From: Alphaproteobacteria bacterium
GTDB lineage: Bacteria; Pseudomonadota; Alphaproteobacteria; Rhizobiales; Xanthobacteraceae
Assembly: GCA_005884765.1 (NCBI GenBank)
Contig: VAZV01000129.1
Coordinates: forward strand, 17,687 to 81,686
Reading direction: 5' to 3'
Length of the DNA stretch: 64,000 nucleotides
In this document: positions 8,752 to 37,275 of the stretch, piece after piece
Layout: every line of letters starts with the position of its first letter
Numbering within the stretch: the first letter of the stretch is position 1
Made by a program: the position numbers and the translations under genes
Notes under the pieces: model-generated
Seen by the model: only the letters and a program-made list of their open reading frames with translations
Databases searched by the model: none
What the model was told of the DNA's origin: nothing

Positions 8752-8900
8752 GGATACGCCAGTACTTACAACAAGATGCATCTCATGTAAGACGTCTTGC
8801 AAGACCGGCGCCAGTTGTTCGACCGATCGGGCTGGTCCTTGAATTGCAGGAACGGCGGTGCGCGTCGTCTAGCAATCCCGTCTCCGGGAGAAGGTTTAGC

Positions 8901-10250
8901 ATGATGGACCGAAATCGGGCGATCTGGATCAAAGATCCCTTGGGCATTCTCGCCGATGGCGCGGAGCGTGGCATTGTCGTCCAGGACGGCAGGGTTGTCG
9001 AGCTGGTGCCGAGAGGCCGCCAGCCGACGACGTCGGCGGCGTTCTTCGAGGCGGGCGACCACGTCGTGCTGCCCGGGCTGATCAACACCCATCATCATTT
9101 CTATCAGACGCTGACGCGGGCGCTGCCAGCGGCAATGGACCGCGAATTGTTCCCGTGGCTGCAGGCGCTGTATCCGGTATGGGCGCGGCTAACGCCCGAG
9201 CGGCTCGAGCTCGGCGTCACGGTCGCGATGTCGGAATTGCTGCTCTCGGGCTGCACCACCACGACCGATCATCATTATGTTTTCCCGGCCGGGCTTGAGG
9301 ATGCCGTCGGCATCGAGGTCGCGGTCGCAAAGCGGCTCGGCATGCGGGTGCTCTTGACGCGCGGCTCGATGAACCGCTCGCAACGGGATGGCGGCCTGCC
9401 GCCGGACAGCGTGGTGCAGGATGAGGACACAATCCTCGCCGACAGCGAACGCGTGGTTGCCAAACATCACCAGCGCGGCGAGGATGCCATGGTGCAGATC
9501 GCGCTGGCGCCTTGTTCGCCATTTTCGGTGACGACGTCGTTGATGCGCGCGACCGCGGCGCTCGCGGACCGGCTCGACGTCCGCCTGCATACCCATCTGG
9601 CGGAAACCGAGGACGAGAACAAATTCTGCGAACAGACGCATGGCTGCCGGCCGCTCGACTATCTCGAGCAATGCGGCTGGCTCAATGCGCGGACCTGGCT
9701 CGCCCATGGCGTTCATTTCAACGCAACGGAGATGAAGCGGCTGGCCCAGGCCAAGACGACGATCAGTCACTGCGCCTATAGCAATCAGTTGTTGGCGTCC
9801 GGTTGCTGTCCGGTTTGCGACATGGAAGCGGCGGGGGTCGCGATAGGGCTCGGCGTCGACGGCTCGGCGTCGAACGATGGATCGAATCTGATGCAGGAGG
9901 TGCGCGCGGCATTTCTGCTGCAGCGGGCGCGTTATGGCGTCGGCAAGGTGAGCCACAAGGACGCGCTGCGCTGGGCGACCAGGGGATCGGCGGCGTGCAT
10001 CGGCCGGCCCGAGCTTGGCGAGATCGCGGTCGGCAAGCGAGCCGATCTCGCGCTGTTCAAGCTCGACGAACTGCGCTTCTCCGGACACGGCGACGCGCTG
10101 GCGGCGTTGGTCTTGTGCGGGGCGCATCGCGCCGACCGCGTCATGGTCGCCGGCAAATGGGTAGTCACCGATGGCGCAATCGAAGGTCTCGATATCGCAG
10201 ACCTGGTCCGGCGCCACAGCGCCGCCGCTCGCGCGATGCAGGCGGGATAG
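8901..10250 (+). CDS. 8-oxoguanine deaminase (amidohydrolase superfamily)
   Basis: MMDRNRAIWIKDPLGI..VVLPGLINTHHHFYQTLTRA..LFPWLQALYPVWARLTPE..LLLSGCTTTTDHHY closely follows the 8-oxoguanine deaminase pattern I recall from Pseudomonas. Confidence 0.82.
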   Translation: MMDRNRAIWIKDPLGILADGAERGIVVQDGRVVELVPRGRQPTTSAAFFEAGDHVVLPGLINTHHHFYQTLTRALPAAMDRELFPWLQALYPVWARLTPERLELGVTVAMSELLLSGCTTTTDHHYVFPAGLEDAVGIEVAVAKRLGMRVLLTRGSMNRSQRDGGLPPDSVVQDEDTILADSERVVAKHHQRGEDAMVQIALAPCSPFSVTTSLMRATAALADRLDVRLHTHLAETEDENKFCEQTHGCRPLDYLEQCGWLNARTWLAHGVHFNATEMKRLAQAKTTISHCAYSNQLLASGCCPVCDMEAAGVAIGLGVDGSASNDGSNLMQEVRAAFLLQRARYGVGKVSHKDALRWATRGSAACIGRPELGEIAVGKRADLALFKLDELRFSGHGDALAALVLCGAHRADRVMVAGKWVVTDGAIEGLDIADLVRRHSAAARAMQAG

Positions 10251-10319: not shown

Positions 10320-11402
10320 TTACTTGCCGGGAATTTTGTCGTCGACGCCCTTGACGTAGAAGTTCATGCCGAGCACCTGACCGTCGTCGAGACGGGTGCC
10401 GCCCTTGCATTCGACTTCCTTGCCGTCCTGGCCGATGACGGGACACTTGAACGGAAACAGCTTGCCGTCGATGATGGCCCCTTCGGTGTCCATCGCCAGC
10501 TTCTTCACGTCGTCGGGCATGTTGGTGTAGGGCGCCATTACGACCATCTTCGATTTCAGCCCACCCCAGGTGTCTTCTTCCTTCCACTTGCCGTCGAGTT
10601 CCGCCTTGACGCGCGCGATGTAGTAGGGCGCCCAGTTATCCATGATGGAAGTGAGCTGTGTCTTCGGTCCGAACTTGATCATTTCGGAATCCTGGCCGAA
10701 CGCCAGCTTGCCGCGCTCTGATGCGACCTGCATCGCTGCCGGTGAGTCGGTATGTTGCATGATGATATCAGCGCCCTGATCGAGTAGCGCCTTGGCGGCG
10801 TCGGCCTCCTTGCCGGGGTCGAACCATGTGTTCACCCAGATGATCTTGACCTTGATGTTGGGATTGACCGTCTGCGCGCCGAGCATGGTGGCGTTGATGC
10901 CCATGATGACTTCCGGGATCGGGAACGAACCGATATAGCCGAGTACGCCGGCTTTCGACATTTTGCCGGCAATAACGCCCTGGATGTAACGGCCCTCGTA
11001 GAACCGGCCGTTATAGATGGACATGTTCTTGTCGTGCTTGAAGCCGGTAGCGTGCTCGAAATGCACGTTGGGATATTTCTTGGCGACCTTCAGCGTCGGA
11101 TCCATATAGCCGAACGAAGTCGTGAAGATCAGCTTGTTGCCGGCGCGCACGAGTTGCTCGATCGAGCGTTCCGCGTCGGGGCCTTCGCTGACGTTCTCAA
11201 GGTAGGTGGTCTCGATCTTGTCGCCGAATTCCTTCACCAGGGCCTGGCGCGCCAGCTCGTGCTGGTAAGTCCAGCCGAGGTCGCCGACTGGGCCAAGATA
11301 AATGAACCCGACCTTCAGCTTGTCGGCGGCCGAGGCGCCGCTCGCAAAGCTGCCGCCCAGCAGAAGCGCCGCGACGGCCGCAAGAAATCTTTTCCTCATC
11401 AT
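10320..11402 (-). CDS. BMP-family ABC transporter substrate-binding protein (purine/nucleoside type)
   Basis: Start trimmed to MMRKRFLAAVAALLLGGSFASGASA (signal peptide). KVGFIYLGPVGDLGWTYQH is typical of BMP/Med lipoprotein-family binders. Confidence 0.88.
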   Translation of the reverse strand: MMRKRFLAAVAALLLGGSFASGASAADKLKVGFIYLGPVGDLGWTYQHELARQALVKEFGDKIETTYLENVSEGPDAERSIEQLVRAGNKLIFTTSFGYMDPTLKVAKKYPNVHFEHATGFKHDKNMSIYNGRFYEGRYIQGVIAGKMSKAGVLGYIGSFPIPEVIMGINATMLGAQTVNPNIKVKIIWVNTWFDPGKEADAAKALLDQGADIIMQHTDSPAAMQVASERGKLAFGQDSEMIKFGPKTQLTSIMDNWAPYYIARVKAELDGKWKEEDTWGGLKSKMVVMAPYTNMPDDVKKLAMDTEGAIIDGKLFPFKCPVIGQDGKEVECKGGTRLDDGQVLGMNFYVKGVDDKIPGK

Positions 11403-11474
11403 CAGTCTCCAAAACAGTCGGGGGGAGCGACAATCCAGTACGCGGCGCCCCATCGCCACGCCCGGAATTCGAAA

Positions 11475-12392
11475 TCAGCGATCGGGCACGAATACGGTTC
11501 CGAGCGCTGCCGGCGCCGTCGAGCCGCCGGTTCTCGCGCGCGAAATCAGCACCAGAACGATTACGGTTGCGAGATAGGGCAGCGCCGACATGAACTGCGA
11601 CGGGATTCCAACTCCGGCGCCCTGCGCATGCAGCTGCAGGATGGTCACGGCGCCGAATAGATAGGCCCCGATCACGAGGCGCCCTGGCAGCCATGAGGCA
11701 AAAACCACCAGCGCCAATGCGATCCATCCGCGGCCGGCCGTCATGCCCGGGATGAAGAACGGCGTGTAGGCGAGCGGCAGGTAGGCGCCGGCGAGCCCGG
11801 CGCAAGCGCCGCCGAACATCACGGCGAACGTTCGGATCCGCAGCACGGGATACCCCAGCGCGTGCGCTGATACGTGGTTGTCGCCGCAGGCGCGCAAAAC
11901 CAGTCCCGGCCGCGTTCGATAAAGGAACCACCACACCGCAACGATCAGCGCCAGCGAGAGATAGATGAAAGGATCTTCGCCGAACAGGATGCGCCCAATC
12001 AGCGGAATATCGGTGAGGCCCGGAATATGAAGATGCGGAGCCGGCGTTATTCTCTCGCCGACGAAGCCGGCGCCGATCAGCCCGGATAGTCCGATGCCGA
12101 GGATCGTCAGCGCAAGACCGCTGGCAACCTGGTTGACAGCAAGGCCCAGCGTCATCATCGCGAAGATCAAGGACAGCAGCGCGCCGGCGATGATCCCGCA
12201 CAGCGCGCCGATGATGGTCGATCCGGAAAGCCAGGCGCCGCCGAACCCACAGGCCGCGCCGACGATCATCATGCCCTCGACACCGAGATTGAGCACGCCG
12301 GCACGCTCGGTCACCAATTCGCCGGTGGCGGCTATCAACAGCGGCGTCGATGCCGCCAGCACCGAAAGGATAATCGCCTCAACCAGTTCCAC
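11475..12392 (-). CDS. ABC transporter permease (BMP-type system)
   Basis: 305-aa polytopic hydrophobic ORF that overlaps the upstream permease by 14 nt. Confidence 0.88.
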   Translation of the reverse strand: MELVEAIILSVLAASTPLLIAATGELVTERAGVLNLGVEGMMIVGAACGFGGAWLSGSTIIGALCGIIAGALLSLIFAMMTLGLAVNQVASGLALTILGIGLSGLIGAGFVGERITPAPHLHIPGLTDIPLIGRILFGEDPFIYLSLALIVAVWWFLYRTRPGLVLRACGDNHVSAHALGYPVLRIRTFAVMFGGACAGLAGAYLPLAYTPFFIPGMTAGRGWIALALVVFASWLPGRLVIGAYLFGAVTILQLHAQGAGVGIPSQFMSALPYLATVIVLVLISRARTGGSTAPAALGTVFVPDR

Positions 12393-13470
12393 TGGACACC
12401 TGCCGTGACGCGAAAACGAGCCGGAAGCGGTAGAGGATGAGGGAATCGCAGGCGAGCACGTAGAACAGCAGGATGCCCTGAAACACCTTGGTGACGTCCA
12501 ACGGGATCTTCATTGCAATCTGGGCCTGCTCGCCGCCGATGAAGGTGAGTGCGAGGAACAGGCCTGCAATTAGTATTCCAATTGGGTTCAGCCGGCCCAG
12601 AAATGCGACGATGATCGCGGTAAAACCGTAGCCGGGCGAAATGCCGGGCTGCAGGTGCCCAACTGGCCCGGCAACTTCGATGATTCCGGCCAAGCCTGCG
12701 AGCGCGCCCGAGACAGCGAATGTCAGGAGGATCAACTGGTTGGCGTTAAATCCGCCGAACCGTGCCGCCCGCGGCGCGGCGCCGACGACGCGAATTTCGA
12801 ATCCCTTGATGGTGCGCCCCAACAGCACCGCCGCCGCGGCAACGATCAAGAGCGTGATGATGGCGCCGAGATGCAGACGGCCACCTTCGACCAAAATCGG
12901 CACGGTCGCGACCGGATCGAACTCGGCGGTGGTCGGGAAGTTGAAGCCCGCCGGGTCGCGCCATGGCCCACGCACGAGATAATCGAGCAGGAGGTCGGCG
13001 ACATAGACCAGCATCAGGCTGGTGAGGATTTCGCTGGCGCCGAACCGAACCTTGCATATCGCCGGTATCAGGGCATAGAGCGCGCCTGCGACGGCACCGA
13101 GCAGCAGCATCGCGGGCAGCACCCAAAAGCCCGCGTCGGTGCCTTGCGTCTTCACCGCGAGCCAGCTACCGGCGACGGCCCCGATCAGGAATTGTCCTTC
13201 GGCCCCGATATTCCAGGCGTTGGCGAGATAACACAGCGACAAGCCGATCGCGATCATCACCAGCGGGCTCGCCTTCACGGCGATTTCCTGCAGCGAATAA
13301 GCGTCGGTCAGGGGATCGATGAAGTAGACGATGAGCGCCGAAATCGGATTCTTGCCAAGGATGACGAACAGGATGCTCATGGTCACGATGGTGAGGCCGA
13401 TCGCGATCAACGGCGAAACCAGCGCAATCGTGTTCGATCGCTCGGCGCGCTTCTCAAGCACCAACTGCAT
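12379..13470 (-). CDS. ABC transporter permease (BMP-type system)
   Basis: 363-aa polytopic ORF that overlaps the ATPase gene end by 17 nt. Confidence 0.88.
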   Translation of the reverse strand: MQLVLEKRAERSNTIALVSPLIAIGLTIVTMSILFVILGKNPISALIVYFIDPLTDAYSLQEIAVKASPLVMIAIGLSLCYLANAWNIGAEGQFLIGAVAGSWLAVKTQGTDAGFWVLPAMLLLGAVAGALYALIPAICKVRFGASEILTSLMLVYVADLLLDYLVRGPWRDPAGFNFPTTAEFDPVATVPILVEGGRLHLGAIITLLIVAAAAVLLGRTIKGFEIRVVGAAPRAARFGGFNANQLILLTFAVSGALAGLAGIIEVAGPVGHLQPGISPGYGFTAIIVAFLGRLNPIGILIAGLFLALTFIGGEQAQIAMKIPLDVTKVFQGILLFYVLACDSLILYRFRLVFASRQVSSGTG

Positions 13471-15022
13471 GCGCCGCTTCCCTTTCGTCCAGGCTGCTTC
13501 CGCCCATCAGCAGGCCAAGCTTTTCGCGGCTGGCTTCGCTGGTGGCGAGCGGCTGCGAAAGTCGGCCATGAAACATCACCGCGATCCGGTCGGTGATTTC
13601 GGCGAGCTCGTCGAGGTCCTGGCTGGTGACGAGCACGGCGGCGCCTGCGGCCGCGAGATCAAGCACTGCCTGGCGGATGACGGCGGCTGCGCCCGCATCA
13701 ACGCCCCAGGTCGGCTGGCTGACAACGAGCACGGCGGGATTTCGAAGAATCTCGCGGCCGACGATGAACTTCTGCAAATTGCCGCCCGACAGGCTCGCAG
13801 CTTCCGGATCGCGTTTGGCCTTGCGTACGTCGAAAGCCTCTGTGGCGCGGTCAACCGTCTTTAGCGTCGCCGTGGTGTTGATGAAGCCACGCTGCACCAT
13901 GCCGCTGGCGGCATGGCCGGTCAAAAGCGCGTTCTCGGAAAGCTTCATCCGCGGCGCGGTGCCATGGCCGAGCCGCTCTTCCGGCACGAACGCCGCGCCG
14001 AGCTTGCGCCGCTGCGTGATCGAAAGATGTCCGGCGGCGACGCCTTCGATCACCACCGTGCCAGGGTCCTGCGACAACCGCTCGCCGGAGAGCGCCGCGA
14101 ACAACTCGTCCTGCCCATTGCCGGCGACGCCGGCGATGCCCAGGATTTCGCCACCCTTCAATTCGAGCGAGATATGTTGCAGCCGCACGCCATGAGGATC
14201 GTCGGGCTCAAGGCTCAGATCGTTCACGACGAGGCGCGGCACCGTGATTTTGCGCTCGGCGCCAGCCCGGACTTCCTTGATCTCGGTGCCGACCATCATG
14301 CGCGCCAGCGAGCTAGCGGTTTCCGCCTTTGGGTTGCAGGTTGCGACCTTCTTGCCGAGACGCAGGATCGTTGCGGTGTCGCACAGCCGCTTCACTTCTT
14401 CCAGCTTGTGGCTGATGTAGAGGATCGCGCGGCCCTCTGCCTTCAGGCGATCCAGCACGATGAAGAGCTGATCGGCCTCCTGCGGGGTCAATACCGCGGT
14501 CGGCTCGTCAAGGATCAGGAATTTGGGATCCTGCATCAGCGCGCGAACGATTTCGATGCGCTGCCGCTCGCCTACCGATAGTTGCCAGACCTCGCGTTTT
14601 GGGTCGAGCGGAAGCCCATAAACATTGGATACCTGCTCGAGGCGCGCCGACATGTCCTTGAACGTCTCCTTGCCGTCGAGACCGAGCGCGACGTTCTCGG
14701 CGACGGTAAGATTGTCGAACAGCGAGAAATGCTGGAACACCATGCCAATGCCGCGGCTGCGGGCTTCCGATGGTCCGGACAGGATCATCCTCTTGCCTTG
14801 CCAGAGCATCTCGCCTTCGCTCGGTTGAATGAGGCCATAGATGGTTTTGACCAGCGTCGATTTTCCGGCGCCATTCTCGCCGAGGAGGGCGTGTATCTGC
14901 CGTGGCCAGATCTCGATATCGACGCGGTCATTGGCGAGGAAGTCGCCATAGCGCTTGGTCAGGCCAACCGTCTGAAGCAGCGGCGTTTCGGTGGAATGCA
15001 GGTCAGGCGCCGAATTTAGCAT
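13454..15022 (-). CDS. ABC transporter ATP-binding protein with duplicated ATPase domains
   Basis: Walker [10 protein letters not shown], signature LSVGERQR, Walker B LILDEPT, and a second-half signature LSGGNLQK. Confidence 0.92.
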   Translation of the reverse strand: MLNSAPDLHSTETPLLQTVGLTKRYGDFLANDRVDIEIWPRQIHALLGENGAGKSTLVKTIYGLIQPSEGEMLWQGKRMILSGPSEARSRGIGMVFQHFSLFDNLTVAENVALGLDGKETFKDMSARLEQVSNVYGLPLDPKREVWQLSVGERQRIEIVRALMQDPKFLILDEPTAVLTPQEADQLFIVLDRLKAEGRAILYISHKLEEVKRLCDTATILRLGKKVATCNPKAETASSLARMMVGTEIKEVRAGAERKITVPRLVVNDLSLEPDDPHGVRLQHISLELKGGEILGIAGVAGNGQDELFAALSGERLSQDPGTVVIEGVAAGHLSITQRRKLGAAFVPEERLGHGTAPRMKLSENALLTGHAASGMVQRGFINTTATLKTVDRATEAFDVRKAKRDPEAASLSGGNLQKFIVGREILRNPAVLVVSQPTWGVDAGAAAVIRQAVLDLAAAGAAVLVTSQDLDELAEITDRIAVMFHGRLSQPLATSEASREKLGLLMGGSSLDEREAAHAVGA

Positions 15023-16742: not shown

Positions 16743-16784
16743 GATGGCGCCGCGATGAACCCCGCGGCGCCATCATCTTTTTTG
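16743..16784 (+). terminator. Rho-independent terminator after the porin gene
   Basis: 12-bp stem GATGGCGCCGCG / CGCGGCGCCATC followed by TTTTTT. Confidence 0.8.
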
Positions 16785-16797
16785 AGTTGAGCCGAAG

Positions 16798-17298
16798 CTA
16801 TTTGGTCCAGACGCCGGCGTGCAATGCTTCCGCCTCGTCCTCAAGCAACGGTCCTTTGACCTCGGTTGCCCGCTGACCGCTCTTGAAAACTTCGCGGCAG
16901 GGCAAATCGAGGGTGGGATTCTCCGGATGATTGCCGGTAACCACGCGCAACCGATGCTCGCTCAGGCCGTAGACCAGGCGGCCAATTCCCGCCCAATAGA
17001 TCGCGCCCGCGCACATCGCGCAGGGTTCGGCGGAGGAATAGAGCGTAGCCGTTTTGAGAACATCCGTGCTCAGCGTCGTGCAGGCCTGTGTCGCCAGCAA
17101 TCGCTCGGCGTGCGCGGTGCCGTCATGCGACGGCATGTAGCCGTTCTCGGCCTCAATCAGCACGGTACGATCCGCATCCACGAGAATAGCGCCAAACGGA
17201 TGATTGCCATGGCTTAGCGACCGGCGGGCGACCTCAAACGAGCGGCGCAGGAAATACGCGTCGAGCTCGGATGTGCTCATCTTCGAAAGATCGTTCAT
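16798..17298 (-). CDS. CDA-fold nucleoside/guanine deaminase
   Basis: Zinc motifs HAE (..TAHAERLL) and PCAMCAGAIYWAGI. Start taken at MNDLSKM. Confidence 0.82.
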   Translation of the reverse strand: MNDLSKMSTSELDAYFLRRSFEVARRSLSHGNHPFGAILVDADRTVLIEAENGYMPSHDGTAHAERLLATQACTTLSTDVLKTATLYSSAEPCAMCAGAIYWAGIGRLVYGLSEHRLRVVTGNHPENPTLDLPCREVFKSGQRATEVKGPLLEDEAEALHAGVWTK

Positions 17299-17343
17299 GA
17301 CCGCCATCATGCAGACCGCGGATGCGGCATGCAAGGACGCCTG

Positions 17344-18876
17344 TCAGTGCCCCGCCATGTGCCGACCGATCTCGGTCAAGTCGGCCTCGCTGGCGCGCGC
17401 TTCGTAGACGAACTGGCCGTGAAACATCACGACCAGGCGGTCGGACAGTTCGAGCAATTCGTCGAGGTCCTCGCTCACCAGCAGCACGGCCGCGCCGCGG
17501 TTTCGCGCGGCCATGATCTCGGCATGGATTTGCGCGACCGCCGCGAAATCGAGACCGAAACAGGGATTGGCGGCGATCAGCACCTCGACATCGCCGCCAA
17601 GCTCGCGCGCCAGCACGGTGCGCTGGACGTTGCCGCCGGACAGCGCCGAGATCGGCGTATCGGGCGTGCGGGTCTTGATCTTGTATTGCGCGATCTTCTT
17701 CTCGGCGTCGTCGCGAAACGCCGTACGGTTGAGCCACCAGCCGCCGCTTGCGAACGGGGCGCGATCGAACTCGCGGAAGGCGATGTTGTCGGCGACGCTC
17801 ATGCCGCCGACGCAGGCGTTCTTCAGCGGTTCTTCCGGCAACAGCGACATCTTGTGCCGGCGCATTTCCTCGCGGCTGGCGCGATAGATATCGCCGGCGA
17901 CGCGAACCTCGCCGCTTTCGGCCTCGCGTTGGCCAGCGAGCACCTCGACGAGCTGGCGCTGGCCGTTGCCCGAGACGCCGGCGATGCCGACGATTTCCCC
18001 GCCGCGGACGGCAAGCGAGACGCCACGGACCGCGATCGCCCCGGCGTCGTCGAGCGCGCTCAGCTTGTCCAGCTCCAACCGTGCCTCACCGACCCCGCCG
18101 ACCCGGGCCGGCTGAATGGTCAGCTCCTCCGCGCCGATCATCATGCGGGCCATGTTGTCGGGCGTGAGATCGGCCACCTTGCCGTGGCCGGCCAGCTTGC
18201 CGCGCCGCAGGATCGTCACCTCGTCCGCAAACGCCATCACCTCGCGGAATTTGTGCGTGATCATCAGGATCGTCAGATCGCCGCCGAGGACCATGTCGCG
18301 CAGCATGCCCAGCACTTCATCGGCCTCGCCCGGCGTCAGCACCGAGGTCGGCTCATCCAGGATCAGGAAACGCCGCTTCAAATAGAGCTGCTTGAGGATT
18401 TCGCACTTCTGCCGCTCGCCGGCGGAGATGTCCGACACCCTGGAATCGAGCGGCACCTTGAACGGCATCCGCGCGAGAAAGGCTGCCAGTTGCTTCTTTT
18501 CCTTGGTCCACTCGAGCACTGCCGGTACGTCGTCGCGCGCCAGCACCAGATTTTCGGCGACCGTCATCGCCGGCACCAGCGTAAAATGCTGATAGACCAT
18601 GCCAAGCCCGAGCGCGTGCGCGTCCTTTGGGTTCGCGATCGCCTGTTCGCGGCCGCCGACCAGCACGTCGCCTTCGGTCGGGTGGTAATAGCCCATGATG
18701 CATTTGACCAGCGTGCTTTTGCCGGCGCCGTTTTCGCCGAGCAGCGCGTGAAATGTGCCCGGGCGGACTTTGAGCGCGACATTGTCCAATGCCACGAAAT
18801 CGCCGAACCGCATCGTCATGGCGACGGCGTCGACGCCAAGGGCGCCTGCCGGCAACGGCGTCTCGCCGATGATCAC
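17344..18876 (-). CDS. ABC transporter ATP-binding protein with duplicated ATPase domains
   Basis: [24 protein letters not shown] and LSGGNVQR. The GTG start at 18876 forms a GTGA overlap with the stop of the cysteine hydrolase gene. Confidence 0.9.
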
Positions 18877-19556
18877 GACAACGCTCCGATCAGTTCGGCT
18901 GAACTTGCGACGGCGCCGAACACGCCGCCCTGCATCTTGATCATCTTCAGCGCGTGATCGTGGTTGCTCTTGTCGGTCGCGGCACAGCAGTCCTCGATCA
19001 GCACGCATTCGAAGCCGCGGTCGTTGGCCTCCCGCATCGTGGTGTGAACGCAGACATCGGTGGTGATGCCCGTGAGCACGATGTTCTCGATGCCGCGCAG
19101 CCGCAGCATCAATTCAAGATCGGTGGCGCAGAACGAGCCCTTGCCCGGCTTGTCGATGACAGGCTCGCCCGGCAATGGCGCCAAATCGGGAATGATCTCC
19201 CAGCCGGCTTCGCCGCGCACCAGCACGCGGCCGCAGGGGCCGGGATCGCCGATCCCGGCGCCGATCTGGCGCGAGCGCCAGCGCTTGTTGGCAGGCAGGT
19301 CAGTGAGATCGGGGCGGTGGCCCTCGCGGGTGTGGATGATGTGAAAACCTTGGGCCCGCATGACCGAGAGCAATCGCTTGATCGGCTCGATCGGCGCACG
19401 GGTCAGCGACAGATCGTATCCCATTTTGTCGACATAGCCGCCGACGCCGCAAAAATCCGTCTGCATGTCGATGATGATGAGCGCGGTATTTTCAGGCCGC
19501 AGATCGCCGTTGTAAGGCCACGCGTAGGGTTCGGATTTGACGTAACGCTCGGGCAT
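18873..19556 (-). CDS. Cysteine hydrolase (isochorismatase-like, RutB/carbamoylsarcosine-amidase-like)
   Basis: A D-K-C triad context is visible: [20 protein letters not shown] and [11 protein letters not shown]. Start at MPERYV. Confidence 0.85.
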
Positions 19557-19586
19557 GGTTTTCGGTCTCACGGCTAGCGCGTCCAG

Positions 19587-20513
19587 TTATCGGGTGATCG
19601 AGAGTTCAGCCGGCGCGCCGGTCAGCGTGCGTTTCGGCGAGCAGGTGATGATCATGATCGCAAGCGTCAGGATATAGGGCGCGGCGTTGAACAAGTAGTA
19701 GCCCGAGGTGATGCCGACCGATTGCAGCGCCGGGCCAAGCGCCGCGGCGCCGCCAAACGCTAGCGATGCCCACAGGCACAGCATGGGGTCCCATCGCGCG
19801 AAGATCACCAGCGCCACCGCGGTGATGCCTTGTCCGGAGGAGAGGCCCTCGTTCCAGCTGCCGGGATAGAACAGCGACAGGAACGAGCCGCCGATGCCGG
19901 CAAGGAAGCCGCCGACCATGGTGGCCTTGAGGCGGATCGCCAGCACGGAATAGCCCATCGCGCGCGCCGCGTCCGAGCTTTCGCCGGCGGTGCGGATCAA
20001 GAGGCCCCAGCGCGTGGTCCGGAAGGCCCAGTACAGCACCGGTGCCAGCACGACGCCGATCAAAAACAACACATTGATTCTGAGCGCGGCGCGCAGTTGG
20101 GCGATATCGCTCCACCATCCGAAATCGATCGCCGGCAGCCGCGGCGCCGTCGGCTCGATCAAAGGCTTGCCGAGATAGAACGCCAGGCCCGTGCCGAACA
20201 GCATCAGCGCGATGCCCACCGCGATGTCGTTGACGCGCGGCAGCGAGCAAATCCCGGCGTGCAGCGCGCCGAGCAGCGATCCCGTCACGCCGGCGGCGAG
20301 CACGCCGAGCCAGGGTGATCCCGTGAGATAGGAGACGCCGTAGGCGCTCATCGCGCCCATCACCAGCGTGCCCTCGAGCCCGAGGTTGATGCGCCCGGAC
20401 CGCTCGGTGATGCACTCACCGAGGCTGACGAACAGGAACGGCGTGGAAACGCGGATCGCGCCGCCGAATACCGCGAGGGGGACCGTCCAGAGCCCGATCG
20501 TTCCGTCCGCCAT
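19587..20513 (-). CDS. ABC transporter permease (BMP-type system 2)
   Basis: 308-aa polytopic ORF, 1-nt gap from the upstream permease. Confidence 0.88.
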   Translation of the reverse strand: MADGTIGLWTVPLAVFGGAIRVSTPFLFVSLGECITERSGRINLGLEGTLVMGAMSAYGVSYLTGSPWLGVLAAGVTGSLLGALHAGICSLPRVNDIAVGIALMLFGTGLAFYLGKPLIEPTAPRLPAIDFGWWSDIAQLRAALRINVLFLIGVVLAPVLYWAFRTTRWGLLIRTAGESSDAARAMGYSVLAIRLKATMVGGFLAGIGGSFLSLFYPGSWNEGLSSGQGITAVALVIFARWDPMLCLWASLAFGGAAALGPALQSVGITSGYYLFNAAPYILTLAIMIITCSPKRTLTGAPAELSITR

Positions 20514-20514
20514 G

Positions 20515-21624
20515 TCAGGACTTGCCCTTCAGAAAGCCAATTCGTCCGTACAGCGCATCGCTCGCGAGAACGAAGGCGAAGATAATTCCTTGCAGCACCT
20601 GCACGGATGCATCGGGCAGGCCGAGCCTGCGCTGCAACAGGCCGCCGCTGGCGCTGATGCCGCCGAGCAGGATCGCGACCGGTATAATTGCAAGCGGATT
20701 TTGCCGCGCCAGGAAGGCGACGAGGATGCCGGTGAAGCCGTAGCCGGCGGCAAGATTGGCATTGGTGCGGCCCTGCACGGCGGCGACTTCCACCATTCCG
20801 GCAAGGCCAGCCGAGGCGCCCGCCAGAAAACAGATGGTCATGATCAGTTTGCCGACACCGAGGCCTACGATTTTGGCGGCGCGAATGTTGCCGCCGGCCA
20901 CGCGCGCGGCGAAGCCGAACACGGTGTGATAGATCAGGATGTAGGAGGCAACGGCGGCAATCAGGCCGAACACCAGACCCCAATGCACGTCGGTGCCGGG
21001 AATGCTGCCGATCATGTTGGCGGCGCCGATCTCGCGCGTCGAGGGTTTGTTGAGGCTCGCCGGATCCCGCATCACGCCTTCGACCAGATGGTTGAGGATG
21101 GCGAGCGCGATATAGACGAGCAGCAGGCTCGATATCGTTTCGTTGACGCCGCGATATTGCCGCAAGCCGCCCGACAGCATGATCCACGAGCCCCCGCCGA
21201 TCATGCCGGCGCAGACCATCGCGAGTTGCACCACGAGCGGCGGCATTGACGGCAAGGCCAGTGCCGCGCCGGTGGCCGCGAGCGCGCCGATCAGCAGCGC
21301 GCCTTCGCCGCCGATGATCACCATGCCGAGCTGCGCCGGCAGCGCCGTGCATAATGCGGTCAGTATCAGCGGCGCCGCGCGCGCCAGCGTGTTTTGCCAG
21401 GAGAACCAGGTGCCGAATGCGCCCTGGTACATATAGAAGTAGAGATCGAGCGGGTTCTTGCCGAACAGGGCGACGAAGACGCCGAACACCGCGAGCGCGC
21501 CGACCAGCGCCGCGCCCGGAATGAGGACGTATTCGATGGTCGTGCCGTGACGCTGGAGGAATCCTGGGTCGGCGGCCGGAGCTACTCCGACCGCCTCCAC
21601 ACCATCCGCCGTGTCTGTCGTCAC
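20515..21624 (-). CDS. ABC transporter permease (BMP-type system 2)
   Basis: 369-aa polytopic ORF. Its GTG start makes a GTGA overlap with the substrate-binding protein stop. Confidence 0.88.
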   Translation of the reverse strand: MTTDTADGVEAVGVAPAADPGFLQRHGTTIEYVLIPGAALVGALAVFGVFVALFGKNPLDLYFYMYQGAFGTWFSWQNTLARAAPLILTALCTALPAQLGMVIIGGEGALLIGALAATGAALALPSMPPLVVQLAMVCAGMIGGGSWIMLSGGLRQYRGVNETISSLLLVYIALAILNHLVEGVMRDPASLNKPSTREIGAANMIGSIPGTDVHWGLVFGLIAAVASYILIYHTVFGFAARVAGGNIRAAKIVGLGVGKLIMTICFLAGASAGLAGMVEVAAVQGRTNANLAAGYGFTGILVAFLARQNPLAIIPVAILLGGISASGGLLQRRLGLPDASVQVLQGIIFAFVLASDALYGRIGFLKGKS

Positions 21625-22730
21625 GAAGTCGCCCCGATCACGCCCTCGACCAGATAATCCATCTTTTCGAGCTCGGGATCTTTCTGGCCGCGGTCGGTGC
21701 CGGCCGCGATCACGGCCTTGCCCTTGTTGTCCATGATCGGGCCCTTGAAGATGGTGTAGTCGCCGGCCGTGAGCTTGGCCTTGACGTCGTCGGCGTGCTT
21801 GCGCGCTTCCGCCGAGACGGCTTCACCGTAAGGGGACACCTTGACGATCTCTTCCTTGAGGCCGCCGCGGTAGAAGTTCGGGATCGATTCACCGGCGGCG
21901 ATCATCTTGACGAATTTCGGATACAGCGCTTCCCAATTCCATTCGGCGCCGGTGAGATAGGCCTTCGGCGCCAAGGGCGACTGGTTGACGTGATAGCCAC
22001 AGACCATGGCGCCGCGGCGGGCTGCGTTCTCCACCATGGTCTTCGGTCCGTCGACGTGGCAGGTCAGAACATCGACGCCCTGATCGATCAGGCTGTTGGT
22101 CGCCTCGGCTTCTTTGACCGGCATCGACCAGTCGCCGGTGAAGATGACCTGCGTGGTGGCCTTCGGATTGGCAAGCTTGGCGCCTAACGTGAAGGCATTG
22201 ATGTTGCGCAACACCTGCGGGATCGGCTTGGCGGCAACGAAGCCGAGCTTGCCGGTCTTGGACGTGTAGCCCGCGACGATGCCTGAAATATATTGCGCCT
22301 CGTCGATATAGCCGAAATAGCTGCCGGCGTTCTTCGGATCCTTCTCGCTCCACAAGCCGCCGCAATGTTCGAAGCGCAGCTTCGGAAACTTGTTGGCCAT
22401 CTTGATCATGTGCGGATTGTAGTAACCGAACGATGTCGGGAACAGCAGCGTCGCGCCGTCGAGATTGATCATCGATTCCATCGTCTTTTCGACGGCGTCG
22501 GTTTCCGCCACCTTCTCTTCCTCGACGATCTTGAGCCCGGGTATCTTCTTCAACGCCGCCGCGCCTTGGGCGTGGGCCTGGTTGTAACCATAGTCGTCGC
22601 GCGATCCGACGTAGATGAAGCCAATCGTGGTGTCTGCCGCGAGTGCGGAACGTGCGCCGAGCGCGCTGCCGAGTGTCAGCGCCGCACTGCCTTGCAAGAG
22701 GTGCCGTCGTGAAATCCTGCCAAAATCCAT
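21621..22730 (-). CDS. BMP-family ABC transporter substrate-binding protein (system 2)
   Basis: Start trimmed to MDFGRISRRHLLQGSAALTLGSALGARSALAA (Tat-like signal). TIGFIYVGSRDDYGYNQAH is a BMP signature. Confidence 0.86.
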   Translation of the reverse strand: MDFGRISRRHLLQGSAALTLGSALGARSALAADTTIGFIYVGSRDDYGYNQAHAQGAAALKKIPGLKIVEEEKVAETDAVEKTMESMINLDGATLLFPTSFGYYNPHMIKMANKFPKLRFEHCGGLWSEKDPKNAGSYFGYIDEAQYISGIVAGYTSKTGKLGFVAAKPIPQVLRNINAFTLGAKLANPKATTQVIFTGDWSMPVKEAEATNSLIDQGVDVLTCHVDGPKTMVENAARRGAMVCGYHVNQSPLAPKAYLTGAEWNWEALYPKFVKMIAAGESIPNFYRGGLKEEIVKVSPYGEAVSAEARKHADDVKAKLTAGDYTIFKGPIMDNKGKAVIAAGTDRGQKDPELEKMDYLVEGVIGATS

Positions 22731-22841
22731 TAGCCTGCTCCCATGGGCGGATACGCCGCCGCTAGTTTCGCCGCTTCGCCCGATCGGCGGAGCCCAGGGG
22801 CGATGTCGCAATCTTCATGCCAGAGCCGCATTAGCGAGCAT

Positions 22842-22856
22842 ATCCGTTTAACGGAT
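22842..22856. promoter_or_regulatory. Palindrome ATCCGT-TTA-ACGGAT in a divergent control region
   Basis: Read directly. It lies in the AT-richer 424-bp gap between the system-2 operon and the amidohydrolase gene. Confidence 0.3.
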
Positions 22857-36261: not shown

Positions 36262-37275
36262 TCATTCCGCGGCTTTGGCGGTCTTGCCGAACATGCGCGT
36301 GGGGACCGCAAAGCCGCAGGACGTGCCGTCGGTCACCTTGATCTTGTCCTCCCATGGCAGGCGGAAGGTGCCGGCGACCATGTCCTGCATGAAAGTGTAA
36401 GGGCAATCCATCGCGCCGCCTTTCACCGCGACATAGCCGCGGTGCCAAAGCTGGTAGATATTGTTCTCGACGCCCCAGTTGATGCGCGCTTCGCGCACGA
36501 GATCGGGGCGGACTTCGGCAGTGATGATCTCGTCGGGCCGCCCGGTGGTGCCATGGGCGATGATAGAGCCGTCGAAATTCACGATCATGCCTTCGCCCAT
36601 GGAATCGAACGATCCGTCAGAGCCGCACATGCAGACGTTGGCGGTCACCATCAAATTCTGGAACGCGTTCGCCTGATTGGTGAAGCGCCAGCTGTCGCGG
36701 ATCGGCGCGGTGTAGCCGGCGGTGCGGATCATGATCTCCGCGCCCTTGTAGGCGCATTCGCGCGCCATCTCGGGGAACATGCCGTCATGGCAGATGATGA
36801 GCGCGATCCTGGCGCCGTTCGGCCCCTCGATCACGGGAATGCCGATGTCGCCGGGCTCCCACGGCTCGACGGGAATCCAGGGATGGAATTTGCGGTAGTA
36901 GAGCTTGATCTCGCCGCGATCGTTGATGATCAGCCCGGAATTGTAGGGATTGCCGTCCGCGTTGAACTCCATGATGGAGAAGCAGCCCCAGATATTGTTG
37001 TCGATGCATGCTTGCTTGAAGGCTGCGACCTCGGGACCGTCGAGGCGACACATGATGTCCGGATTGGTGTCCATCGACAATCCGTGCAGCGAGTATTCCG
37101 GAAACACCACGAGATCCATGGTGGAGAGATTTCGTCGTGCCTTGCCGACCATGGCGACGATGCGCTCGGTCTGGCGCGCCAGATCGGCCTTGGTCGCGAC
37201 CACAGGCAATTGGAGCTGAACCAGCCCGATGACGACGCCATTGGGTGATTTGTTGAGGCCGCCAAGTCCGCTCAT
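36262..37275 (-). CDS. amiF: Formamidase (nitrilase-superfamily aliphatic amidase, AmiF type)
   Basis: 337 aa. E-K-C context FPEYS, YRKFHPW and ICHDGMFPE. The C-terminus TFRLPWEDKIKVTDG..FGK parallels Helicobacter AmiF. Confidence 0.88.
   Translation of the reverse strand: MSGLGGLNKSPNGVVIGLVQLQLPVVATKADLARQTERIVAMVGKARRNLSTMDLVVFPEYSLHGLSMDTNPDIMCRLDGPEVAAFKQACIDNNIWGCFSIMEFNADGNPYNSGLIINDRGEIKLYYRKFHPWIPVEPWEPGDIGIPVIEGPNGARIALIICHDGMFPEMARECAYKGAEIMIRTAGYTAPIRDSWRFTNQANAFQNLMVTANVCMCGSDGSFDSMGEGMIVNFDGSIIAHGTTGRPDEIITAEVRPDLVREARINWGVENNIYQLWHRGYVAVKGGAMDCPYTFMQDMVAGTFRLPWEDKIKVTDGTSCGFAVPTRMFGKTAKAAE

Follow-up and report, generated by a model that had tools for sequence, protein, structure and literature searches.

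Biuret amidohydrolase (BiuH) has been described beside BMP-type ABC transporters in several bacteria. In the cyanuric acid/biuret cluster of Rhizobium leguminosarum bv. viciae (strain 3841 BiuH; PDB 6AZO, 6AZQ; PMC5806882) the genes run BMP binding protein (SBP), two permeases, BiuH and tandem ATPase; the slot between permease and ATPase additionally holds a formamidase and the cyanuric acid hydrolase AtzD, and the locus further has a TrtA-like hydrolase, a cupin and a divergent GntR regulator. The BiuH catalytic triad is Asp36-Lys142-Cys175 and biuret is bound by Lys145, Thr171, Gln215, Phe41, Tyr47 and Val174 (PMC5806882). BiuH likewise lies beside a BMP-type ABC transporter in the triuret/biuret pathway of Herbaspirillum sp. 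BH-1 (TrtA, TrtB, BiuH, AtzF; PMC7948467) and in the nitrifier biuH-bmpA-nupABC clusters (PMC12625717), for which a role in scavenging urea-condensation or purine-oxidation products was proposed (PMC7948467, PMC12625717). Two further proteins are relevant. AtzT is the SBP of the atzRSTUVW operon of Pseudomonas sp. ADP (PDB 6PI5; PMC6834077), where the order is SBP-ATPase-permease-permease without an embedded enzyme; atz operons are sigma-54 driven and nitrogen controlled (PMC6834077), as we infer for the operon described here. Msd of Mycobacterium smegmatis (PDB 5XKO; PMC11963756, PMC9081823) is a deaminase described in a toxin-efflux region; it is inactive on guanine and acts on isoguanine, 5-azacytosine, ammeline and ammelide (PMC9081823), the last two of which feed the route from cyanuric acid to biuret.

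The operon examined here lies on the minus strand of a 64,000-nucleotide stretch of DNA (the window), and its six genes encode an SBP, two permeases, BiuH, a tandem ATPase and a CDA-fold deaminase (Table 1). Gene coordinates and domain matches bore out the gene content, order and strand given by an earlier, sequence-only reading, which spoke of seven genes while its own list gave six; the junctions it reported are all present (GTGA at SBP/permease, a 1-nt gap between the permeases, GTGA at hydrolase/ATPase, 18873-18876), and the D-K-C triad it saw in the hydrolase was found as D30/K136/C169. The ATPase start position is kept: in relatives, tblastn matches that begin at residue 1 adjoin BiuH. 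The gap between permease 2 and the hydrolase is 30 nt (15 nt with the alternative hydrolase start), that between ATPase and deaminase 33 nt (9 nt with an alternative TTG start of the deaminase), and the predicted terminator is common to the deaminase gene and the convergent porin gene. The window's gene list holds no regulator gene adjoining the operon. The arrangement is not due to chance, as it recurred in about 30 of 80 deaminase-anchored loci fetched and, of 45 sampled congeners with both genes, 38 had the deaminase directly after the ATPase. The locus sits within the purine-catabolism island of the window.

Table 1. Positions of the operon genes, associated signals and the satellite formamidase in the window.
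Feature	Position	Strand	Remarks
Bidirectional intrinsic terminator hairpin (predicted)	16743..16774	.	12-bp stem; between deaminase and convergent porin gene
CDA-fold zinc deaminase	16798..17310	-	Pfam dCMP_cyt_deam_1; HAE at residue 67, PCAMC at residue 96
Tandem-domain ABC ATPase	17344..18876	-	two ABC_tran domains; GTG start overlaps BiuH stop (GTGA)
Biuret amidohydrolase BiuH, isochorismatase-fold cysteine hydrolase	18873..19556 (or from GTG 19571)	-	NCBIfam NF050097 equivalog
ABC permease 2	19587..20513	-	BPD_transp_2; 1 nt downstream of permease 1
ABC permease 1	20515..21624	-	BPD_transp_2; GTG start overlaps SBP stop (GTGA)
BMP/PnrA-family periplasmic SBP	21621..22730	-	twin-arginine signal SRRHLL; biuH-linked SBP group
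5' leader	22731..22807	-	two GC-rich hairpins and Shine-Dalgarno GGGAG
Sigma-54 type promoter (predicted)	22808..22822	-	TGGCATGAAGATTGC; GG and GC elements at canonical spacing
AmiF-type formamidase	36262..37275	-	NF009803, 578 bits; satellite of cassette

The hydrolase is a biuret amidohydrolase, and is predicted to convert biuret to allophanate and ammonia. It scored 421.4 bits against NCBIfam NF050097 (EC 3.5.1.84; equivalog cut-off 370) and aligned without gaps to the crystallised R. leguminosarum enzyme (PDB 6azo, E 1e-122); all 16 of the active-site and binding residues checked from the published list (PMC5806882) were identical, among them K139, T165, Q209, F35, Y41 and V168 besides the triad. 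The substrate, which had been called not obvious, can thus be named, in agreement with the earlier view that the unit serves uptake and catabolism of a ureide and with the place of biuret hydrolase among the three enzyme types then listed. A paralogue on contig 8 was rejected as a BiuH (261 bits against NF050097, below the cut-off); it is TrtA-like, closest to PDB 6xix, and adjoins an AzgA-like permease.

We consider it likely that the operon, which is probably sigma-54 dependent and belongs to a Bradyrhizobium-type genome, is made of two parts, a biuret cassette and a deaminase of the purine island. The Tat-exported SBP and the importer with two permeases and a tandem ATPase would take in biuret or a very close acylurea, and BiuH, as identified from its sequence, would cleave the imported biuret to allophanate and ammonia; the unlinked allophanate hydrolase AtzF (contig 4) could complete the breakdown, and AtzD, on the same contig as the operon and 25 kb off, could provide biuret internally. 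The Msd-like deaminase most likely would turn guanine or isoguanine into xanthine for the nearby xanthine dehydrogenase (XDH), and would be simply the last gene of a shared transcription unit in this genus. Most likely, then, the operon imports biuret or a closely related acylurea under nitrogen control and hydrolyses it to allophanate.

Compared with the Rhizobium cluster, the enzyme is orthologous, with all catalytic and biuret-binding residues kept, and the core gene order is the same; here, however, formamidase and AtzD are both outside the operon (amiF 14 kb off), another contig carries the TrtA-like gene, the place after the ATPase is taken by a CDA deaminase, and transcription would start from a sigma-54 type promoter. 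The operon lacks the cupin gene, and none of the other extras of the canonical clusters (TrtA-like hydrolase after the ATPase, allophanate hydrolase, GntR regulator) was found in or adjoining the operon, which, unlike the Herbaspirillum pathway, also has no trtA, trtB or atzF. The window formamidase is 79-82% identical to formamidases inside the cassettes, where its orthologue is found in Rhizobium, gammaproteobacterial plasmids and Xanthobacteraceae MAGs; among 80 sampled congeners, which are not independent genomes, the AmiF-type formamidase occurred in 34 of the 52 with BiuH and in none of the 28 without it.

The SBP matched Pfam Bmp (PF02608) with 132.4 bits (gathering score 24.1), and its best solved relative was AtzT (6pi5, E 4e-61), with which it shares family, fold class, Tat signal, aromatic sandwich and Ser-Phe site. 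Identity to AtzT is 37% only (35-37% when the window's purine-type SBP is counted with AtzT) and 50-62% to biuH-linked SBPs of Alpha- and Gammaproteobacteria. The biuH-linked SBPs form a group of their own in which Glu165 of AtzT is replaced by Gln or Ser and further pocket positions by Asn/Gln; in the window SBP the changes include Glu165 to Gln, Thr139 to Gln and Thr46/Tyr47 to Asn/Gln. Over the AtzT pocket (Tyr45, Ser97, Phe98, Glu165, Trp194, Asn218, Asn220) the stacking and backbone residues are retained, and positions 218/220 carry His/Asp, the same pair as in the purine-type SBP of the window. A literature search found no transport or binding report on any biuH-linked BMP protein, so the naming of biuret as imported ligand is guilt by association.

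Closest to the deaminase among solved structures was Msd (5xkq/5xko, E 2e-21; B. subtilis guanine deaminase, 3e-16). Its zinc site (HxE, PCxxC) and the equivalents of Phe29, Asn46 and Trp95 are present, and the C-terminal extension can be aligned to the Msd-specific loop region; the purine anchor E27, however, is replaced by His (GNHPFG), and the Pro122-Pro123 gate of the alpha4-alpha5 loop is missing (HPENPT). Its setting, purine catabolism and biuret uptake, also differs from that of Msd. In a phmmer comparison with the CDA-fold guanine deaminases B. subtilis GuaD (1wkq) and N. europaea NE0047 (2g84), which concerned the second acidic proton shuttle (E143 in NE0047) and the C-terminal lid, only the core (residues 19-120) aligned and the C-terminal 50 residues were unplaced. 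The window's genome holds no canonical guanine deaminase. That Msd, the closest characterised relative, does not act on guanine but does act on ammeline and ammelide was counted against the two-part view.

The deaminase is more likely a resident of the purine island that is co-transcribed with the cassette and, judged from the genomic comparisons, would serve the neighbouring purine pathway. Its presence agreed with that of XDH in 73 and with that of BiuH in 65 of the same 80 non-independent congeners, 8 of which held the deaminase without BiuH and 7 BiuH without the deaminase. In seven relatives scars mark the deletion of the five-gene cassette, and 3' remnants of the ATPase persist in 7 cassette-less loci; one of these loci (L036) also retains the opening codons of the SBP gene as well as the sigma-54 promoter. 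BiuH was absent genome-wide from the five cassette-less, deaminase-keeping genomes searched. At least 12 Xanthobacteraceae-type loci have the order XDH-FAD, XDH-FeS/Moco, deaminase, and in Xanthobacteraceae MAGs the deaminase comes third, behind xanthine dehydrogenase. The proposal that the deaminase is an integral member of the pathway was not upheld, as it outlasts loss of the cassette, is absent from biuH clusters beyond this family (Rhizobium, Mesorhizobium, gammaproteobacterial plasmids) and tracks XDH more than BiuH. Also counted against the two-part view were its presence in nearly all AtzD-positive congeners, its recurrent place directly after the ATPase and its occurrence near a biuH cassette again in a second lineage; this repeated neighbourhood may reflect a functional link with the cassette.

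Such a link would be made specific, as would the sequence-only reading itself, if the importer took in an amino-s-triazine or aza-pyrimidine (ammeline, ammelide, 5-azacytosine) and the deaminase joined AtzD, the AmiF-type formamidase and BiuH in a single pathway, either from ammelide through cyanurate and carboxybiuret to biuret, or from 5-azacytosine through 5-azauracil and N-formylbiuret to biuret. We hold this to be unlikely. The substrate range of Msd (PMC9081823), the binding of ammeline by AtzT at 0.36 uM (PMC6834077), AtzD on the same contig, the deaminase as last operon gene in most congeners with both genes and its presence in 38 of the 39 AtzD-positive congeners, and the confinement of the formamidase to BiuH-positive congeners all fit it; but the deaminase and BiuH occur apart in both directions, the Rhizobium, Mesorhizobium and gammaproteobacterial plasmid cassettes do without a deaminase, and it tracks XDH by its presence and, in a further lineage, also by where it lies. 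The lack of the E27 anchor and the di-proline gate and the changes at Glu165, Thr139 and Thr46/Tyr47 of the SBP pocket set both proteins apart from Msd and AtzT, and the ring-opening of 5-azauracil is a chemical inference only.

It is very unlikely that the importer is an ordinary purine/nucleoside BMP transporter with BiuH as a passenger unrelated to its cargo. The characterised BMP/PnrA proteins do all bind purines or nucleosides, the locus is within a purine island, and the SBP retains, as purine-type SBPs do, the aromatic sandwich (Tyr49, Trp201), the Ser-Phe site at the backbone and the His/Asp pair; however, a second, purine-type importer is already 5 kb away in the window, its SBP much nearer AtzT and 3s99 (E 2e-113, 2e-157), the separate group of biuH-linked SBPs is conserved alongside BiuH across classes, and the five cassette-less genomes searched had no BiuH anywhere.

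In a sample of 400 Pseudomonadota genomes the order permease-[formamidase]-BiuH-ATPase was found in 21 of 22 BiuH loci; the same order occurs in Mesorhizobium, Pseudomonas luteola and Citrobacter plasmids and in the R. leguminosarum and R. tumorigenes loci, where AtzD shares the slot. The slot takes one to three enzyme genes depending on taxon (formamidase, BiuH, AtzD), an argument against any special stoichiometric link between BiuH and transporter and so against the suggestion of obligatory stoichiometric co-expression. The position of BiuH between the genes for permease and ATPase follows the ancestral order, canonical for biuH clusters, and is no sign of a special coupling. One outcome named in advance as refuting the sequence-only reading, absence of the hydrolase from the operon in close relatives, did not occur. 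In GC-rich genomes, operon genes often have a stop codon that overlaps the next start. A physical BiuH-transporter complex of fixed stoichiometry (metabolon), to which the kept overlap of BiuH stop and ATPase start might point, is hardly credible, given that AtzD intervenes between BiuH and ATPase in Rhizobium and the formamidase between permease and BiuH in 6 of 21 sampled loci, so that neither neighbour of BiuH is fixed.

The locus is thus the Bradyrhizobium copy of a widespread, already described biuH-importer gene set and is largely ordinary, its sole local addition being the co-transcribed base deaminase. A wider reading, which we think quite improbable, would make the biuH-linked BMP system an acylurea/oxo-triazine importer surrounded by enzymes that each take one member of the acylurea series, fed by the Msd-like deaminase. 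The R-CO-NH-CO-NH2 series might be split among formamidase (formylurea/N-formylbiuret), BiuH (biuret), TrtA (triuret) and AtzD (cyanuric acid), and the Bradyrhizobium deaminase might supply the set from amino-triazines/5-azacytosine and XDH from isoguanine. If this were true, the importer would be the first BMP-family system with a ligand other than purine or nucleoside, and the island would serve to salvage damaged or unnatural bases.

Clusters of this type bear on how soil bacteria, legume symbionts among them, recover nitrogen; the sources are cyanuric acid, the fertiliser impurities biuret and triuret and, possibly, oxidised purines. This copy contributes the presence/absence polymorphism of the cassette within Bradyrhizobium, with visible deletion scars, its probable sigma-54 control, and the AmiF-type formamidase that accompanies BiuH even when outside the cassette; beyond these the window copy adds little to the known picture.

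The 5' leader gave no match in an Rfam search; its hairpins are conserved across 16 aligned relatives, with covariation in just 1 of 17 pairs. The promoter motif TGGCATGAAGATTGC (22822-22808), some 90 nt before the start codon (ATG) of the SBP, fits the TGGCAC-N5-TTGC spacing and is probably of the sigma-54 type (RpoN-dependent), as judged from the DNA. The form TGGCA[CT]GA(AG/CA)[AC]TTGC lies at -88 to -95 in each of the 22 Bradyrhizobium relatives checked, as it does in the window.

The locus represents the known biuret cluster in a reduced Bradyrhizobium form, probably driven from a sigma-54 promoter. Six co-directional genes run on the minus strand from 22730 to 16798: a five-gene cassette, ending with the tandem ATPase, and then a deaminase. 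The arrangement noted in the sequence-only reading was real, and its gene junctions were all borne out (GTGA at SBP/permease, a 1-nt gap between the two permeases, GTGA at hydrolase/ATPase); its count of seven genes was wrong, the reader's own list holding six.

Features of the operon, its control region and related genes of the window
Feature	Position	Strand
BMP-family binding protein (SBP), twin-arginine signal	21621-22730	-
BPD_transp_2 permease	20515-21624	-
BPD_transp_2 permease, second	19587-20513	-
Isochorismatase-fold cysteine hydrolase (predicted BiuH)	18873-19556	-
Tandem ABC ATPase	17344-18876	-
CDA-fold deaminase	16798-17310	-
Strong hairpin closing the operon, common to the convergent porin gene	16743-16774	
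Predicted sigma-54 type promoter motif, TGGCATGAAGATTGC	22822-22808	
5' leader, ~75 nt	22731-22807	-
Palindrome ATCCGTTTAACGGAT, divergent control region	22842-22856	
First BMP importer	10320-15022	
Amidohydrolase-family gene (8-oxoguanine deaminase by score)	8844-10250	
Formamidase gene amiF, AmiF-type	36262-37275	

The substrate of the operon had been thought obscure. The hydrolase scored 421 bits against the NCBIfam equivalog model for biuret amidohydrolase (BiuH; cut-off 370 bits), aligned without gaps to the crystallised R. leguminosarum BiuH (PDB 6AZO, E 1e-122), and kept 16/16 of the catalytic and biuret-binding residues listed in the structural paper (PMC5806882), including the Asp-Lys-Cys triad, Lys145 and the cross-subunit Gln215; judged by its sequence, it is BiuH rather than a generic cysteine hydrolase. 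The remaining enzymes of the route are also encoded in this genome. The contig of the operon carries, 25 kb upstream, the gene of a true cyanuric acid hydrolase (AtzD, which scored 488 bits and passed its cut-off), and contig 4 that of a true allophanate hydrolase. Contig 8 holds a TrtA-like, BiuH-like paralogue closest to PDB 6xix; its assignment to an allophanate/urea carboxylase unit was rejected, the neighbours being an AzgA-like permease gene and an indolepyruvate oxidoreductase-family gene, not AtzF/Uca.

Earlier taken as unusual, the position of the hydrolase gene between permease and ATPase genes is what the known cluster canonically shows. Of 400 evenly sampled Pseudomonadota genomes, 22 besides the present one encode a BiuH above cut-off, and the permease-BiuH-ATPase placement was found in 21 of these 22 (with a formamidase ahead of BiuH in 6 of the 21 loci). 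On annotated plasmids from Mesorhizobium, Pseudomonas luteola and Citrobacter the order runs SBP, permease, permease, (formamidase), BiuH, ATPase and a second cysteine hydrolase, followed by cupin or HpxZ, AtzF and GntR; in R. leguminosarum bv. viciae and R. tumorigenes the permease-ATPase slot is filled by formamidase, BiuH and AtzD; and in nitrifiers biuH adjoins bmpA-nupABC (2025 paper, PMC12625717). The slot can hold anything from one to three enzyme genes of different kinds, which speaks against any special stoichiometric link of BiuH to the transporter.

The nearest solved relative of the SBP is AtzT of Pseudomonas sp. ADP, which binds guanine, ammeline and hydroxyatrazine (PMC6834077). 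Among eight alpha- and gammaproteobacterial SBPs linked to biuH, mutual identity was 48-85%, compared with 30-38% against AtzT or the purine-type SBP of the other importer in the window. Both the aromatic sandwich and the Ser-Phe site are retained in these eight, but they differ from AtzT at Glu165 (Gln/Ser), Thr139 (Gln/His) and Thr46/Tyr47 (Asn/Gln). No publication on a BMP protein that binds biuret turned up in our literature search; the economical guess for the putative ligand is biuret or a close acylurea. The earlier idea of uptake joined to ureide catabolism was right in kind, and wrong in taking the layout for unusual, the substrate for obscure and the deaminase for a member of the pathway. 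The first BMP importer of the window has a different gene order (ATPase, permease, permease, SBP) from the biuH cassette, and its SBP is of the purine type (E 2e-157 to PDB 3s99, 2e-113 to AtzT).

A predicted sigma-54 type promoter motif is shared by the window and 22/22 relatives checked, always at -88 to -95; the operon is probably sigma-54-driven, which fits the atz operons of Pseudomonas sp. ADP, themselves sigma-54 and nitrogen-controlled (PMC6834077). No regulator gene lies adjacent to the operon, and the palindrome in the divergent control region was rejected as an operator since none of the 22 relatives checked has it there. The leader contains two GC-rich hairpins that are also found in 16 congeners; a riboswitch was considered and set aside, Rfam giving no hit up to E 1 and 1 of 17 pairs covarying among congeners, which is insufficient for the claim of an RNA element.

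The deaminase and the cassette are separable. Eighty loci fetched by a search with the deaminase put the organism in Bradyrhizobium and fell into three classes. About 30 were like the window; about 25, from Bradyrhizobium or Tardiphaga, were without the five-gene cassette and had the deaminase immediately beside a divergent allantoate amidohydrolase gene. In seven of the cassette-less loci, L036, L039, L046-L049 and L059 (~9850-10000), a degenerate ATPase 3' end remains just upstream of the deaminase, and L036 retains the sigma-54 promoter and first SBP codons as well, fused to the ATPase remnant; the seven are cassette deletions that spared the deaminase, and the remnants reject gain of the cassette by insertion for at least 7 lineages. 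BiuH was found nowhere in the five cassette-less genomes searched. In the third class, Xanthobacteraceae MAGs, the deaminase comes third after two xanthine dehydrogenase (XDH) genes, with a diverged biuH cassette with formamidase 0.2-5 kb beyond it.

Among an even sample of 80 congeners, in which counts are not independent and serve as leads only, presence of the deaminase agreed with that of XDH in 73 and with that of BiuH in 65 (deaminase without BiuH in 8, the converse in 7); the ATPase was followed directly by the deaminase in 38 of the 45 congeners holding both deaminase and BiuH. Retention after cassette loss and the better agreement with XDH both speak against the deaminase as a member of the pathway, as it had been presented. 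Less probably, it may feed amino-triazines to AtzD and BiuH; 38 of 39 AtzD-positive congeners carry it, though XDH is equally frequent in those congeners. Presence/absence counts were rejected as a means of choosing between purine and triazine roles because, across the genus, AtzD, XDH, BiuH and the deaminase vary together, so that the counts lean to XDH without settling the role. The closest solved relative is the mutagenic-base deaminase Msd of Mycobacterium smegmatis, which accepts isoguanine, 5-azacytosine, ammeline and ammelide but not guanine (PMC9081823); Glu27 and the di-proline gate of Msd are not kept in the window deaminase. A canonical guanine deaminase was absent from the genome and from 3 of 5 complete relatives checked. 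In our reading the deaminase belongs to the purine island, where it would convert guanine/isoguanine to xanthine, and is on a predicted transcript in common with the cassette. The separate amidohydrolase-family gene that scores as 8-oxoguanine deaminase (664 bits, cut-off 532) lies between the XDH genes and the purine-type BMP importer.

The window amiF product is 79-82% identical to formamidases inside biuH cassettes elsewhere. The gene was present in 34/52 BiuH-positive and 0/28 BiuH-negative genomes (80-species sample); in congeners its usual distance from biuH is 3.4-12 kb, with both genes on one strand, and in other taxa the orthologue is inside the cassette. On chemical sense, formylurea or N-formylbiuret would be our guess for its putative substrates.

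Just upstream of the window (own-genome contig C35:6833-14783, fetched as L010), AtzD is part of a co-directional block with a CoxL-like molybdenum hydroxylase large subunit, an FAD-binding subunit, an FAD monooxygenase and an amidase-signature enzyme, a set that recalls oxidative N-heterocycle or pyrimidine breakdown. On contig 8 (locus L011:3314-5715), and also at L028:1368-3772 and L029:5928-8347, the TrtA-like hydrolase is paired with a 551-aa membrane protein, which had no Pfam match and is grouped by Atlas with AzgA-family xanthine/uracil permease-like proteins; this pair is probably a second acylurea uptake module, and in two relatives it directly adjoins the allantoate amidohydrolase and deaminase genes.
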